Origin: a virus
Virus record (IMG/VR): IMGVR_UViG_3300013883_000004
Length of the DNA stretch: 30,984 bases
Direction: 5' to 3' (one strand)
This document shows, in pieces, positions 11,321 to 30,604 of this stretch (the first letter of the stretch is position 1; every line of letters begins with the position of its first letter). The position numbers and the translations under genes are program-made. The notes beneath the pieces were generated by a model that had not been told where the DNA came from, did not search any database, and saw nothing but the letters and a program-made list of their open reading frames with translations.

Positions 11321-11761
11321 ATGGAAAACACGAAAGAAAACACAGGAAAAATTGTTGGAGGTGCAAGTGGAAAAGGTTTTGATGTTAATGGGCAACCTAG
11401 TCCAGAAGCAAAGAAGGCAGGTTGGGAAAGAAGAAGGGAGGCACAGAAAATCCTTGATGAGTTTATGCGACAGGCTGATATGAGCTACAAAGAAATCAAG
11501 GACTTGTTAAACGATATTAAGAAGAATCCTCAAAATCATACATTAAGGGAAGTAAAAATAGCTAATTATTTAATGAGCGGGAAGTATACGGTAGACTGGT
11601 TAAACAGGCATATTAGTAACGCACCGCAGGAGGTAGATATTACTTCTAAGGGAAAGGCAATTAAGAAATATACATTTGAAATAGTAAATGCAAAAGACAG
11701 TAATGAACAATCAGAAGCGGGAAGAAGAGAAGATAATAAAAGCGACACACCTACTGACTGA
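11321..11761 (+). CDS. terS: Terminase small subunit (putative)
   Basis: The gene sits immediately upstream of TerL and overlaps it. The Gly/Lys-rich N-terminus GGASGKGFDVNGQPSPEAKKAGWERRREA is typical of small terminase subunits. Confidence 0.55.
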   Translation: MENTKENTGKIVGGASGKGFDVNGQPSPEAKKAGWERRREAQKILDEFMRQADMSYKEIKDLLNDIKKNPQNHTLREVKIANYLMSGKYTVDWLNRHISNAPQEVDITSKGKAIKKYTFEIVNAKDSNEQSEAGRREDNKSDTPTD

Positions 11762-13334
11762 TACGATAGAAGCATTTGAAAATGGCAAGAGGGTTGTTGA
11801 ACATTCAGGGGGCAGTAGGTGCTTTGATGGTGAGCAGAAAGTTATAACAGATGGTGGAAGCAAGAAAATATCAGACATAAAAGCTGGTGATTTTGTTCTT
11901 TCAGGACACAACAAAGAATACAAGATGGTTAAGAATGTTTTTAAGATGAAGAATGAAAAACCTTGTTATGAGATAGTTCTAAAAAATGGTGAAAAGATTA
12001 GAGCAACACAAGACCACAAGGTTTGGTACAGGGGCGGTTGGCATTCTCTAAAATATGTTGTAAAATGTTGGAATAAAAGGGAATCGTATACAACACTACT
12101 AGATGATATTGCAGAGGTTAGAGAAATATCACTCGATACTGTTTATGATATTGAGGTTGAAGATAATCACAGTTATTATTTAGATTGCGAAAAGCCCATT
12201 CTTGTTCACAATTCTGGAAAAACTTATTCTATCTTTCAATTTCTTCTAGGAAGAGCAATTCAAGGTAAAGGTGAAACTTTCACAATAGTCAGGGACAAGT
12301 TGACTTGGATAAAAAGCACACTATTGGTAGACTTCAAGAACATAACTGATATGATGGAGTTAGAAGTTACACCAGAAATAAACTATAACAGAGCAGAACA
12401 GGTTTATATTGTTAATGGTAGTGAGTTTGCATTCTTCGGACTAGATTATGCCGAGAAGTTACACGGAAGAAAACAAGATTGGTCTTGGATAAATGAAGCA
12501 TTAGAAGTAGAAAGAAATCATTTTGACCAGTTAGAGATGAGAACAACAAAGGGAATGTTAATAGACTTTAATCCGTATAATGATATAGGTTGGGTATACG
12601 ATATTCAGAAGCGACCAGATGTGCAAGTAATTAAGTCTACAATGTTAGACAATCCTTTTTTAGAAGAAGCTATCAGAAAGAAGATATTAAGTTATGAACC
12701 TACACCAGAGAATATTAAAAACGGTACTGCTGACAATTATATGTGGCAGGTTTATGGGTTAGGAGAAAAGGCAAGGTTACAAGGTTTGGTATTTAATAAC
12801 TGGGATATTGTAGAGGATATTCCTGATGGTGCAAAGTTCTTAGGTTATGGTTTAGACTTTGGATTTACAAATGACCCTACCGCATTGGTAGGACTGTGGG
12901 AATATGATAAAGAATTATATGTTGACAATCCTATTTACAAAACCAGACTGCTTAATCAAGATATAATCAATGAGTTAAAAAGGCTAGGTGTTAGCAGTGC
13001 TGATTTAATTGTTGCGGATAGTGCAGAGCCTAAGAGTATAGAAGAAATAGCATTGGCAGGATTTAACATACAAGGGGCATACAAGGGACAGGATAGTGTG
13101 AGATATGGAATAGATTTATTAAAGAATTTCAAAATACACTTAACCAGAAGAAGTATTGAAATGGAGAATGAACTAAGAAAATATAAATACAAAGAGGACA
13201 GAAGCGGAAACATTCTCAACGAACCTATTGACCAGTTTAACCATACAATAGATGCACTGCGGTATATTGCCATAGAAAGATTAGGGAATAGGCAAGAGGT
13301 GCAGATATTTAATAGAGAACTGCTAGGCTTGTAA
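11688..13334 (+). CDS. terL: Terminase large subunit precursor, interrupted by a mini-intein
   Basis: The exteins join as ...EHSGGSR|SGKTYSIF..., which restores the Walker A motif G-x4-GKT. The C-terminal nuclease region contains DQFNHTIDALRY. M6 at 11703 is an alternative start. Confidence 0.85.
   Translation: MQKTVMNNQKREEEKIIKATHLLTDTIEAFENGKRVVEHSGGSRCFDGEQKVITDGGSKKISDIKAGDFVLSGHNKEYKMVKNVFKMKNEKPCYEIVLKNGEKIRATQDHKVWYRGGWHSLKYVVKCWNKRESYTTLLDDIAEVREISLDTVYDIEVEDNHSYYLDCEKPILVHNSGKTYSIFQFLLGRAIQGKGETFTIVRDKLTWIKSTLLVDFKNITDMMELEVTPEINYNRAEQVYIVNGSEFAFFGLDYAEKLHGRKQDWSWINEALEVERNHFDQLEMRTTKGMLIDFNPYNDIGWVYDIQKRPDVQVIKSTMLDNPFLEEAIRKKILSYEPTPENIKNGTADNYMWQVYGLGEKARLQGLVFNNWDIVEDIPDGAKFLGYGLDFGFTNDPTALVGLWEYDKELYVDNPIYKTRLLNQDIINELKRLGVSSADLIVADSAEPKSIEEIALAGFNIQGAYKGQDSVRYGIDLLKNFKIHLTRRSIEMENELRKYKYKEDRSGNILNEPIDQFNHTIDALRYIAIERLGNRQEVQIFNRELLGL
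11820..12212 (+). mobile_element. Class-1 mini-intein (131 aa) in the TerL P-loop
   Basis: It begins with Cys in CFDGEQKV (block A) and has TQDH (block B, TxxH). VYDIEVEDNHSYY...ILVHN supplies blocks F and G and ends in HN, followed by the +1 Ser of SGKT. No homing-endonuclease domain fits in 131 aa. Confidence 0.85.
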
Positions 13335-27799: not shown

Positions 27800-28834
27800 A
27801 TGCCTTATATACAACTGCCAACGATTAAAAACAGGGGAAGTCCTGATAAGAAAAACGCAAGTAAAGTTAAAATTATTAAAAGAATTATGGAAAAAGAACA
27901 AGGCTTATATACCAGTCCTGATACATTTGAAAGTAAAAGAGATATAGAGATAAAAAACATTGAAAAAGGAAATGTTAGTATTGTCTACCCTGATAGATAT
28001 CTACCTGATTTGTCCTTTGAAGAACTTCACGAAGACATCAGAAGAAGAGCAGAAATCAGAAATGAAGTTGAGAATAAGGAGTATATTGCCAATATAGAAA
28101 TTAAGACAGATAGACCACTAGCAGTTGGTTGGTTTGCCGATATTCACAGTGGTGGAAGTGATATCGATTACGATAGACTAAAATGGGAAGCGGAGGAGGT
28201 TAGAAGAAATCCATATATGAAGTTGTTTCTAGGCGGAGATTTGGCTGATTGCTTTGATTTTAATCCTGCACAGTTTGGAGATGTTGCCAATATGAATGAA
28301 CAAAGATTGTATTTGTATAAGTTACTAGAATATATAGGATATGGGAATATACTTTGTGGAGTAAGTGGAAATCACGAAAGATTTACACAAAGAACTGGAT
28401 TAGACTTTTACACAGATATTAGAAAAAAGATACCCATTTTTGACGGGGTAGGAACTGTTAAGTTAAAGATTAACGATATTGAATATGTAGGAGCTTTAAT
28501 GCACAAACCTAAGGGGTACTCAATATATAATCCTAACCATCCACAAAAGAGATTCTCAATGGATAACGAGGGATACGACTTCATACTATCAGCACACATA
28601 CACGAGGGGGCTGAACAATCACAATTAAAGAAGACTGCTGATGGAGTTAAAAAACAAGTATTCTTATCAGGAAAGACTTTCAAGAGAGGTGACGATTTTT
28701 TAGATAAGAATAGCAATGTAAGGAAAGAGGGAGATGCTTTGGGTACGAATTGGATTGTATTTAACCATAAAAAGAAAATGATGATACCCTTGTCTTGCAC
28801 GGCGGAAGTAATTGAGTTTTATGGCAATATATGA
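27800..28834 (+). CDS. Calcineurin-like metallophosphoesterase
   Basis: The ordered motifs are DIHSGG (DxH), GGDLAD (GDxxD), GNHE and SAHIHEG (GHxH-like). Confidence 0.75.
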   Translation: MPYIQLPTIKNRGSPDKKNASKVKIIKRIMEKEQGLYTSPDTFESKRDIEIKNIEKGNVSIVYPDRYLPDLSFEELHEDIRRRAEIRNEVENKEYIANIEIKTDRPLAVGWFADIHSGGSDIDYDRLKWEAEEVRRNPYMKLFLGGDLADCFDFNPAQFGDVANMNEQRLYLYKLLEYIGYGNILCGVSGNHERFTQRTGLDFYTDIRKKIPIFDGVGTVKLKINDIEYVGALMHKPKGYSIYNPNHPQKRFSMDNEGYDFILSAHIHEGAEQSQLKKTADGVKKQVFLSGKTFKRGDDFLDKNSNVRKEGDALGTNWIVFNHKKKMMIPLSCTAEVIEFYGNI

Positions 28835-28977
28835 GAGCAAATTGGAACAAAATCTATAAGTGGAGTAAGTGGTTGCTAATATCATCTATTATATTTTTTG
28901 TTCTGCTTAACTGGAAATTGGTTCTGACTTGGATTACTTCACTATTCTTGTGGTTGTGGATTAAGTTAGTTCTTTAA
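28831..28977 (+). CDS. Small Trp-rich two-TM membrane protein (48 aa), below the track cutoff
   Basis: ATGA overlap with the phosphoesterase stop codon. Hand translation gives MRANWNKIYKWSKWLLISSIIFFVLLNWKLVLTWITSLFLWLWIKLVL. Confidence 0.45.
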   Translation: MRANWNKIYKWSKWLLISSIIFFVLLNWKLVLTWITSLFLWLWIKLVL

Positions 28978-28982
28978 CATAC

Positions 28983-29080
28983 AGACCTGAGCCCTTGAAA
29001 AACTCGGATAAGACAGGAGATTCTCCTGTGTATTAGTTCAGCAGGTCTTCGGTAGTCATAAAAGGGCTAGAAAGACTACC
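28983..29080 (+). ncRNA. Candidate structured RNA leader: three 7-bp helices plus a 7-bp pseudoknot
   Basis: AGACCTG (28983-28989) pairs with CAGGTCT (29042-29048). ACAGGAG (29013-29019) pairs with CTCCTGT (29023-29029). GGTAGTC (29051-29057) pairs with GACTACC (29074-29080). AGCCCTT (28990-28996) pairs with AAGGGCT (29062-29068), which lies in the loop of the third hairpin. Hand-counted GC is about 45% over 28981-29080. Confidence 0.4.
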
Positions 29081-29139
29081 ATTGAATATGGAACTATTGA
29101 ATTGCTTTCTTCAACTATCAAAAGGAAAGGAGATGTGAA

Positions 29140-29316
29140 ATGGGCTTGGAAGACTTATTTGAATGTGAAGGGTGCAGAACAGAAAGTGGAGATTGTCCAT
29201 TGTTCGTATGCTATGATGACGGTTTCTATTTAGTTTGTTGCTTAGTGTATGCGATAAAAAGAAACCTAGTGCTAATCAAGAAAATGGGCGAAAAAGACGA
29301 AGAAGATGAGGTGTGA
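29140..29316 (+). CDS. Small Cys-rich protein (58 aa), below the track cutoff
   Basis: A strong SD, AAGGAGA, sits 7 nt before the ATG. Hand translation gives MGLEDLFECEGCRTESGDCPLFVCYDDGFYLVCCLVYAIKRNLVLIKKMGEKDEEDEV. It overlaps the HNH gene by 11 nt. Confidence 0.5.
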   Translation: MGLEDLFECEGCRTESGDCPLFVCYDDGFYLVCCLVYAIKRNLVLIKKMGEKDEEDEV

Positions 29317-29551
29317 TGTGAACAGCGACTGGAAGCAGGTAATTCGGAATAGGGACAAAATATGTCAGATATGTGGAACAGTTGGAAGCAGAGAAAATCC
29401 TTTAACGGTTCACCATATCATTTACAAATGTCAAGGAGGAAGCAACTCACCAGATAATTGTGTTCTATTGTGCAGAAATTGCCACGACAGAGTTCATAGA
29501 CAGAACCCCGTGAGAAGAAAAAGGCAAAAGAAGCACGGTAGAAGACATTAA
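29306..29551 (+). CDS. HNH endonuclease (81 aa)
   Basis: The motif reads CQICG...HHIIYKCQGGSNSPDNCVLLCRNCHDRVH, and the C-terminal tail is basic. Confidence 0.85.
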   Translation: MRCDVNSDWKQVIRNRDKICQICGTVGSRENPLTVHHIIYKCQGGSNSPDNCVLLCRNCHDRVHRQNPVRRKRQKKHGRRH

Positions 29552-29559
29552 TAGTTCAA

Positions 29560-29605
29560 GAGAAGGGGTACTTATATATCCAACATTGGTATTGTATCCC
29601 TTCTC
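29560..29605 (+). other. Long imperfect hairpin after the HNH gene, with no U-tract
   Basis: GAGAAGGGGTAC (29560-29571) pairs with GTATCCCTTCTC (29594-29605), giving 12 bp with one G-U pair. An apical CCAA/TTGG stem sits inside the loop. Confidence 0.45.
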
Positions 29606-29626
29606 GAATTACATTATATTAAGAAT

Positions 29627-30604
29627 ATGGAAAACAAAACAAAGAAAAAAACAATAGTAATTTATCACGAAGCAATCCCTAAGGTAGGTGGTATAGAAAC
29701 GGTAACATACAATCTTGCAAAGGGATTAGATAAGAATGGGTGGAGAGTTATTTTGACTTTTAAGTCTATGAAAGTTTGGGAGAGTGCTTTCTTTTATGGA
29801 CAGGTGGCCGACATTGTGAAATTAGAAGAATTAGAAAATTATATGAAAGGACAGGTTGCTGATGTGTGTTTAATTGCTAGTAATCATCAACTTCCTGAAC
29901 AGATTAAAGCTAAAAGGTTCTTACAGTGGATTCATTCTGATTATACGAAATACCCTGTTAAGTTGGCAAATAAGGGGAAAGTTGAATACATTGCAGTAAC
30001 ACAACACTGTGCCAACATTATTAAGAAACTTGAAGGAATTAATGCAAAAGTAATATACAACCTAATCAATGAAGATTTTGGGAAAGACAAAAGGAAGGTT
30101 CTAAAATTAGTAACAAATAGTAGAATAAGTAGAGAAAAAGGTTTTGACAGAATGCTCTTAATGGCTAAAAAACTGAAAGAAAACAATATCAGGTTCATCT
30201 GGACAGTATGTGGAGATAATATCTATGATACTAAACAGTTTGATAATGTAAAGGCTACATTTTCTGATATAGAAGAAGTTTCTTTTGTAGGATACAAGAA
30301 AGATGTAACACCGTATTTAAGAGATGCTGATTACTTGGTATTGTTAAGTGATTTTGAGGGTTGTCCACTAGCAGTATTAGAAGCATTGCAGATGGAAGTT
30401 CCCTGTATAGTCACCAACTGGGGAGGCATTAACGAATTAATCGAAGATGGGAGAAATGGCTATATCTTAGATATGCAATTAAAAAACTTAGACAAAGAAA
30501 AAATAAAAGAGATATATGAGTGTAAGTTAAAGTTCAAGTTTGAACCGAAGTCTACAATTAATGATTGGTTAAAATTGTTAGGAGAACAAAATGGTAAAAG
30601 TTAA
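29627..30604 (+). CDS. GT-B fold glycosyltransferase (GT1/GT4-like)
   Basis: The C-terminal domain reads VTNSRISREKGFDRML...LLSDFEGCPLAVLEALQMEVPCIVTN...ELIEDGRNGYI, which includes an EX7E-type motif. Confidence 0.75.
   Translation: MENKTKKKTIVIYHEAIPKVGGIETVTYNLAKGLDKNGWRVILTFKSMKVWESAFFYGQVADIVKLEELENYMKGQVADVCLIASNHQLPEQIKAKRFLQWIHSDYTKYPVKLANKGKVEYIAVTQHCANIIKKLEGINAKVIYNLINEDFGKDKRKVLKLVTNSRISREKGFDRMLLMAKKLKENNIRFIWTVCGDNIYDTKQFDNVKATFSDIEEVSFVGYKKDVTPYLRDADYLVLLSDFEGCPLAVLEALQMEVPCIVTNWGGINELIEDGRNGYILDMQLKNLDKEKIKEIYECKLKFKFEPKSTINDWLKLLGEQNGKS

Follow-up and report, generated by a model that had tools for sequence, protein, structure and literature searches.

A candidate family of pseudoknotted RNA modules in unrelated phages, with copies inside tmRNA and RNase P RNA

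A pseudoknotted RNA at a phage gene junction

The DNA analysed here, called hereafter the window, is a viral stretch of 30,984 nt (IMG/VR virus record IMGVR_UViG_3300013883_000004). Towards its end, a metallophosphatase gene and a small hydrophobic open reading frame (ORF) are followed, at positions 28978–29605, by a non-coding region, an ORF for a Cys-rich protein (Cys-ORF), a gene for a minimal HNH endonuclease and a long hairpin. A first-pass annotation had taken this segment for a recently acquired mobile HNH cassette equipped with its own structured leader. Sequence comparison leads to a different view: positions 28983–29080 are a conserved, covarying, pseudoknotted RNA under selection and read from the + strand, and this RNA is an independent module, not a private control element of the HNH genes. 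Its parts are the following.

28983–29080, + strand: pseudoknotted RNA module, the sole copy found in the window by model R1 (51.9 bits, E 2.7e-11, over 28983–29076, a score that is not independent since the training set of R1 included this copy).
28983–28989 (AGACCTG) and 29042–29048 (CAGGTCT), + strand: closing helix P1, with invariant inner pairs (CCUG/CAGG) and three covarying outer bp.
28990–28996 (AGCCCUU) and 29062–29068 (AAGGGCU), + strand: pseudoknot of 7 bp, the latter strand lying in the loop of the second hairpin.
28997–29012 (G-AAAA-ACUCGGAUAAG) and 29037–29044 (UUCAGCAG), + strand: conserved joining strand, split by a 24-nt insert (29013–29036).
29013–29029 (ACAGGAG-AUU-CUCCUGU), + strand: extra hairpin in the joining strand, with a 7-bp stem, lineage-specific and restricted to the clade of the window.
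29051–29057 (GGTAGTC) and 29074–29080 (GACTACC), + strand: second hairpin, with a 7-bp stem and an A-rich loop, AUAAAAGGGCUAGAAA, that bears the 3' strand of the pseudoknot.

The runner-up match of R1 in the window scored 13.6 bits. The four separate 7-bp Watson-Crick complements within 98 nt, on which the first-pass annotation had built its pseudoknotted fold, are all in place. None of 5000 shuffles reached four such complements, and among real 98-nt windows of the same contig 2 of 1236 did.

Copies, consensus and covariation

A homologue of the module was found in locus L001, a viral contig whose adjacent metallophosphatase is 66% identical to that of the window, and it lies there about 360 nt upstream of the Cys-ORF and HNH gene. 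P1 and the pseudoknot are preserved by compensatory changes, the pseudoknot passing from AGCCCUU/AAGGGCU to UACCUCU/AGGGGUA. IMG/VR was then scanned by exact match with a split 19-mer pattern, composed of the two halves of the shared core, ACUCGGAUAAG and UUCAGCAG. The scan gave 38 loci, with the whole motif in 36 and 27 distinct sequences.

The consensus begins with (3 variable bp)CCUG, the 7-nt pseudoknot strand, a G and an optional hairpin of 12–52 nt. It continues with AAACUCGGAUAAGUUCAGCAGG(3 variable bp), an optional stem and AUAAA, and ends with the 7-nt pseudoknot partner, an A-rich tail and the return strand of the stem. The minimal form is 60–77 nt long, and P1 has 4–7 bp across the family. 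The joining strand of about 22 nt (AAACUCGGAUAAG-UUCAGCAGG) is almost invariant, a property partly built in for the IMG/VR and genome copies, which were retrieved by an exact 19-mer. The set of copies found via the neighbouring protein is the only one free of this pattern bias on the core. There the core was almost unchanged, with a U-to-C change in two copies and two core changes in a third; deviations were confined to these pattern-free copies (L066, L072 and L052). The L052 copy (L052:1890–1956) is without the extra hairpin of its clade and deviates from the core at two positions (AAACACUCG-AUAAG), as a result of either decay of the module or an assembly error.

The first-pass annotation had named helix-disrupting substitutions in relatives as a finding that would refute it; compensatory changes were found in P1, the pseudoknot, the second hairpin and the extra hairpin. 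Over 32 distinct copies, 95.5% of the cells were standard pairs and 8 of 14 pairs had changed on both sides. The corresponding values were 93.5% for P1, with three doubly changed pairs, and 97.3% for the pseudoknot, with changes on both sides in five of its seven pairs (for example UACCCUU/AAGGGUA, GGCUCCU/AGGAGCC, UCUCCCU/AGGGAGA and AAUCCUU/AAGGAUU). The covariation score was attained by none of 500 shuffles, and controls with slid partners were 43–61% paired. Similarly, in the independent set of eight distinct copies found via the neighbouring protein, 92% of the cells were paired, and the shuffle test again gave 0 of 500.

The two hairpins vary more. The stem of the second one differs in sequence and length among copies while its complementarity is kept, and it is reduced or absent in a short subtype. 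The stem of the extra hairpin reads ACAGAAA/UUUCUGU in L051–L058 and ACAGU/ACUGU in L066 and L072, so that it also covaries; it is missing from L052 and from every other phage outside the clade of the window, and a consensus scan rated it as weakly terminator-like. The paired positions comprise 11 G-U cells, which would be A-C on the opposite strand, and the nearest tRNA or transfer-messenger RNA (tmRNA) gene is on the strand of the module in 12 of 12 cases. The RNA is therefore read from the + strand.

The loci that bear the module range in GC content from 0.27 to 0.46, and no protein family common to the different groups of module-carrying phages was found. By these comparisons the module is an RNA family not catalogued in Rfam 15 and widespread in unrelated phages.

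Occurrence in tRNA arrays, tmRNA and RNase P RNA

In L008 the module is located 12 nt after tRNA-Phe and 5 nt before tRNA-Lys, and in L015, L020 and L024 the closest tRNA gene is 8–12 nt away. In these four arrays its length, 72–77 nt, is that of a tRNA. The L012 copy is part of a phage tmRNA (Rfam, 91 bits) and is found 8 nt past the stop codon of the tag (...YALAA), at the place of pseudoknot PK2; in L017 and L040 a tmRNA is located 300–530 nt downstream. At other loci the module is found upstream of unrelated, differing ORFs.

A scan of prokaryotes with the exact 19-mer, taking one genome per species, returned seven matches. Five are within ribonuclease P (RNase P) RNA, one is phage-like, and one, where nothing else of the motif is present, probably arose by chance. 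The five RNase P carriers have genomes of 0.6–1.0 Mb and comprise four metagenome-assembled genomes (MAGs) of Patescibacteria, or candidate phyla radiation (CPR), and one MAG labelled Gammaproteobacteria. For three of the five the RNase P RNA was above the Rfam threshold; the other two were added by alignment and have the same conserved regions (CR) CR-I, CR-II, CR-III, CR-IV and CR-V. The insert is located between the P12 hairpin and CR-III (GUGAAACGG), that is, between CR-II and CR-III, and this same single junction was used in at least three lineages. A relative has, in an RNase P RNA of 282 nt, a plain 15-nt P12 hairpin at this place. Mimicry of the host by the phage was considered as an explanation of the RNase P link; that so few RNase P RNAs bear the module makes it less likely. 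One RNase P-carrier contig also bears 16S rRNA. The 16S rRNA at L047:3300–3380, on an RNase P-carrier contig, ends without the CCUCC that pairs with Shine-Dalgarno (SD) sequences, and the neighbouring ORFs have no SD.

Two unrelated loci, L005 and L028, have non-coding strings in common (GCAGAGACUAUAAUCACC and AUAGUCCAGACCACAA, at about 130 nt before and 100 nt after the module), and in each a T-arm and an acceptor-like 3' end follow the module. A larger RNA may embed the module there. That the two are tmRNAs was considered and rejected: neither acceptor-like 3' end has the G3-U70 context, and the Rfam scan, which of the two covered L028, gave no tmRNA match.

Genes and signals next to the module

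The other features of the junction are listed below.

28831–28977, + strand: small hydrophobic, transmembrane (TM) ORF of 48 aa, overlapping the stop of the metallophosphatase gene (27800–28834).
29128–29134, + strand: SD of the Cys-ORF, AAGGAGA, the strongest anti-SD duplex among 53 ORFs (−8.7 kcal/mol).
29140–29316, + strand: Cys-rich protein of 58 aa, with six conserved Cys (CxxC-x6-C-x4-C-x8-CC).
29306–29551, + strand: minimal HNH endonuclease of 81 aa (PF01844, E 2.4e-14, 53.6 bits versus a cut-off of 21.4 bits, positions 1–47 of 47).
29560–29606, + strand: long hairpin after the HNH stop, with a 12-bp stem (GAGAAGGGGUAC/GUAUCCCUUCUC).

The first-pass annotation had singled out the segment by its composition, its SD and its two small genes, and on these points it was largely right. 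The enrichment in GC is real and modest: 0.396 over 28978–29605 versus 0.333 for the whole window (z 2.1, which places the segment in the top 0.3% of 628-nt windows). The first 100 nt have 0.45, and so does the RNA itself. The SD of the Cys-ORF, kept as AAGGAGG in L001 and L022, stands out in a phage that is poor in such signals, since 87% of the 53 ORFs have duplexes weaker than −6 kcal/mol and leaders are AT-rich, such as AAATTATTAAAATAAAAA. Both proteins, the Cys-rich and the HNH one, were confirmed. The overlap of 11 nt between their ORFs holds if the HNH gene starts at ATG 29306; an in-frame GTG at 29318, behind GAGGTG, is equally possible, would give a protein of 77 aa and leaves no overlap. 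At the same place L001 has an equivalent GTG with GAGGTG, and L022 has GAGGTG followed by ATG.

No Pfam match was found for the 48-aa TM ORF. The Cys-rich family is rare, with 12 proteins of 34–67 aa, and one repetitive outlier, among 1.84 billion representatives; a word-index search with the protein gave only the match to itself. The HNH protein matched 40 PHROG HNH families. Most module-bearing loci are SD-poor, like the window, and the large terminase of the window is nearest to those of Bacteroides phages (38% identity). The host, as far as such signals indicate, would be Bacteroidota-like or Patescibacteria-like.

The predicted hairpin after the HNH gene was also confirmed. A long hairpin is present at this place in 11 of the 15 relatives examined, and its arms covary. 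In the window (29552–29612) and in L001, L059, L066, L068, L071, L075, L078, L081, L082 and L084, these hairpins have 9–13 bp, are purine-rich, and are often located after TTGGTAA and before a short T run. They could be terminators or DNA sites used by the nuclease. A family-4 glycosyltransferase gene (29627–30604) follows the hairpin in the window and is also found in the closest relatives (L051, L054 and L084); it is not present in L001, where early genes follow directly.

Module shuffling and recombination at the junction

Relatives of the metallophosphatase (47–82% identity) were encoded by 47 metagenome loci. In the closest ones, L051–L058, the order is metallophosphatase, RNA module, TM ORF, in some of them Cys-ORF, then HNH and glycosyltransferase. 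The window differs from them in that the TM ORF, whose homologues there are 63–65% identical, precedes the module. In L072 the HNH gene precedes the module, L059 has Cys-ORF and HNH without a module, and HNH genes without a module are also found in L068, L075, L078 and L080–L082. The Cys-ORF is present in some HNH-bearing relatives and missing in others.

HNH homologues occupy the same junction down to 47% identity of the neighbouring gene. Since the HNH gene and its 3' hairpin are found at the junction over this whole range, they are long-standing residents and not a recent acquisition. No allele without HNH ("empty site") was recovered at the junction among the relatives. Of the mobility proposed by the first-pass annotation, what stands is a recombining mosaic. 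Contigs from wastewater and digester metagenomes had 0–4 differences from the window over 28877–29583 (at least 99% identity), whereas the flanks were 86–90% identical (10–14% different). The block had a depth of 13.4, close to what results from adding the 4.4 of one adjacent bin to the flank depth of about 9. Loose contig ends lay at 28834 and at 29583, the latter inside the 3' hairpin, and breakpoints were placed at 28834–28877 and 29583–29611.

A similar pattern was observed between L001 and L022, where two non-coding blocks, L001:1240–1480 and L001:1560–1715, are 100% identical and the surrounding ORFs about 70–78%. The first block contains the RNA module and the following hairpin, and the second lies just upstream of the Cys-ORF. 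From these comparisons, Cys-ORF, HNH gene and 3' hairpin form an accessory block that resides at the late/early junction of this phage family, is driven by an SD and recombines between strains.

Two other elements were noticed at this junction. An ORF of 47 aa (L001:1441–1584, + strand; L022:4259–4402, − strand; also in L060–L091) matches Pfam NRDD over its final 32 positions only, which correspond to the glycyl-radical C-terminus of anaerobic ribonucleotide reductase (35 bits versus a cut-off of 26.2 bits). It is common at the junction in relatives and missing from the window, and looks, from its match, like a stand-alone "spare part" peptide. In L001 a hairpin with a conserved loop is repeated at 1373–1400 and 2333–2365 (GGTGG-TTTCCGACAACTTT-CCACC and GGTAGG-TTTGCTACAACTTT-CCTACC), one copy after the RNA module and the other before the first early gene.

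What the RNA may be

The first-pass annotation had treated the RNA as part of the HNH cassette and possibly as a regulatory leader of its genes. The first idea does not hold: gene orders vary, HNH is often found where the module is missing, and the module occurs in unrelated phages, in tmRNA and in tRNA arrays. The second is largely refuted by the variable context, the module having no constant position before one gene class; such a context leaves little room for a leader dedicated to HNH. In the absence of a common phage protein, a strand that is nearly invariant in genomes of very different composition points to a chemistry of its own, or to a partner common to all hosts. In addition, a tRNA-like size, a snug fit in tRNA arrays and the tolerant positions occupied in tmRNA and RNase P RNA argue for an autonomous domain. 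We therefore favour, and give about an even chance, a general model in which the module would be an autonomous compact RNA domain, cut out or kept as a stable RNA. As the last part of the late (lysis) operon transcript, it would fold into a compact pseudoknot domain and then remain as a stable piece of RNA or be trimmed out as one. The target of the invariant strand would be the RNA itself or a host-universal partner, namely tRNA, RNase P or the machinery of translation, and no sensing of a ligand to switch HNH on would be involved.

Several points weigh against this model. The R1 score of the window copy and part of the invariance of the core are not independent, as mentioned above. RNAfold recovered the three nested helices with an ordinary energy, not better than that of shuffles (z −0.73), so that the structural support is due to covariation and not to folding energy. 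For about two thirds of the phage copies, no tRNA was detected within 600 nt. The RNase P insert is sporadic, being found in 1 of 151 sampled genomes of the phylum and in 1 of 41 relatives of one carrier, in a search with a lossy first filter. Finally, the terms "stable" and "acting on a conserved partner" are drawn from context alone.

More specifically, the module could be a new class of small ribozyme that cleaves or otherwise processes itself, cutting within or next to the conserved strand. Such a cut would separate tRNA precursors, release the message for Cys-ORF and HNH from the late transcript, and break tmRNA or RNase P RNA where this is tolerated. The profile is like that of known small ribozymes, with a multi-helix junction and a pseudoknot, about 35 near-invariant bases in the joining strands, and optional hairpins of any length at two peripheral points; there is no fixed gene neighbour, in unrelated phages of GC content 0.27 to 0.46. 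The helix order (P1-5', PK-5', small hairpin, P1-3', PK-3') would resemble the nested fold of hepatitis delta virus (HDV) ribozymes, and HDV-like theta ribozymes, which occur beside phage tRNAs, provide a precedent (PMC10879173). However, no Rfam ribozyme model matches, there is no conserved C before the 3' half of the pseudoknot, other tRNAs of the same arrays are separated by 2–8 nt without such an element, and a self-cutting insert would be unusual in an essential RNA such as that of RNase P; we consider this explanation unlikely. Somewhat more doubtful is the proposal that the module docks on the tRNA-processing or translation apparatus (tRNA or RNase P), as a decoy, a recruiter or a "tRNA-like punctuation" cleaved by RNase P, by which phages would favour the processing of their own tRNA or mRNA precursors. 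The distance of 5–12 nt to a tRNA gene in four arrays, where the module has the size of a tRNA (72–77 nt), and the copy in tmRNA, another RNase P substrate, are consistent with it. So is the RNase P RNA insert directly beside CR-III, the strand of bacterial RNase P that contacts the tRNA T-loop. The joining strand moreover contains UGAAA, the same pentamer as the CR-III T-loop, which is a lead only. Yet the window and its relatives contain no tRNA at all, no CCA-like tail follows the module, and module-bearing RNase P RNAs are so rare that most hosts lack the supposed cellular counterpart.

The other two explanations involve the HNH genes. A DNA-level recognition or recombination site of 19–22 bp, for example the target of the HNH or of another homing nuclease, would account for the spread to unrelated phages and to the same RNase P spot, as well as for the nearby mosaic breakpoints. 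In length the near-invariant core is close to a homing site, an HNH gene is nearby in the family of the window, the block with the module is almost identical between otherwise diverged strains, and RNase P insertion took place at one junction in at least three lineages. The helices outside the core, however, covary with G-U pairs, which is sensible only for a one-strand RNA, most module-bearing phage loci have no nearby HNH, and the contig breakpoints (28834–28877 and 29583–29611) are outside the core, so this is very improbable. We consider least probable of all a cis-regulatory leader, whether riboswitch or protein-binding operator, for translation or termination of Cys-ORF and HNH. The module does lie upstream of the Cys-ORF in the window, L001 and L022, and in L006 a T run, an SD and an ATG come after the second hairpin, like an expression platform. 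But conservation does not extend to the 59-nt spacer before the ATG, and the fold leaves the SD unpaired; a separate ORF and about 360 nt intervene in L001, close relatives have the reversed order or lack the module, the downstream genes differ per phage group and are often tRNAs, and copies are found inside tmRNA and RNase P RNA.

Orphan RNAs with much invariant sequence and a covarying pseudoknot have repeatedly proved to be ribozymes, riboswitches or parts of RNA machines. The module links phage tRNA arrays, tmRNA and an insert of Patescibacteria-type RNase P RNA, which had not previously been connected. An action on tRNA processing would make it a new means by which phages handle their own tRNAs, and a catalytic activity would make it a new ribozyme class. 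As a mobile self-acting module, it would be the first small RNA module known to pass between the genomes of phages and the genes of cellular ribozymes. That it is a new class of catalytic or self-acting RNA, a mobile building block of phage tRNA arrays, intergenic junctions, tmRNA and RNase P RNA, we hold to be a minority prospect. In viromes, the module is a marker for annotating a recurrent non-coding element. The HNH genes themselves are ordinary, and are of note as SD-driven genes in an SD-poor phage, within a recombination hot spot.

Comparison with known RNA families and systems

The first-pass annotation had likened the fold to riboswitches and ribozymes, and no known class of either kind was matched in the Rfam scan. 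With Rfam 15 and E values up to 10, the best match over 28700–29800 of the window was Mu-gpT-DE (18.5 bits versus a threshold of 49 bits). A scan of 15 loci with canonical copies (E up to 0.5) placed nothing on the module. The scans of the window stretch and of these 15 viral loci likewise gave no match to RNase P RNA (RF00010). Among 50,697 GenBank phage records, BLAST returned no real match to either the window stretch or a canonical copy, a full-text literature search with the core sequence returned unrelated primers only, and a 2026 preprint on non-coding families does not mention the module.

Among nucleases, the window protein resembles the small phage HNH endonucleases (PF01844) in having a complete HNH motif and lying in an intergenic accessory region. 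Unlike the gp74-type HNH of HK97, a packaging helper encoded near terminase, it is not next to the terminase genes (11321–13334). For homing nucleases, a presence/absence polymorphism is expected, whereas HNH of the window family is found in nearly all relatives with enough downstream sequence.

T4 species 1 and 2 RNAs are non-tRNA molecules of tRNA-like size within a phage tRNA array. Like the module, they are described as small RNAs of phage tRNA clusters; they are not known to recur in RNase P RNA or tmRNA. The tmRNA pseudoknots PK2–PK4 share the H-type fold with the module, which in L012 replaces PK2 right after the tag stop codon. Their position tolerates replacement, and they are not known to be conserved in sequence between phyla or to be found free-standing.

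Theta ribozymes and the module are both small pseudoknotted phage RNAs, a few nt from tRNA genes, with a nested two-helix topology. The strand order of P1 and the pseudoknot fits the HDV-like order (P1-5', P2-5', P3, P1-3', P2-3'), yet the 3' strand of the pseudoknot sits in the loop of an enclosing hairpin, unlike the HDV fold. The module also differs in the lack of P1.1 and of a G at the first position of P1, and no HDV-type match was found in Rfam. In HDV-like ribozymes, the catalytic C in J4/2, at the first position before the 3' strand of P2, is defining (PMC10879173). A mapping of the module on the HDV fold was rejected, the strand before the 3' half of the pseudoknot having no conserved C (AAUUAA in the short subtype, ending in ...AUAA in the others).

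For divergent CPR RNase P RNAs, missing helices were reported and not this insert (PMC8172020), which appears to be undescribed. The insert in the P12 region of RNase P RNA (RF00010) is embedded in a ribozyme of 377–420 nt and flanked by CR-II/P12 and CR-III, whereas the window copy is free of the conserved regions of RNase P. The two nevertheless have the same core, base for base, and the same P1, pseudoknot, second hairpin and position of the optional hairpin.

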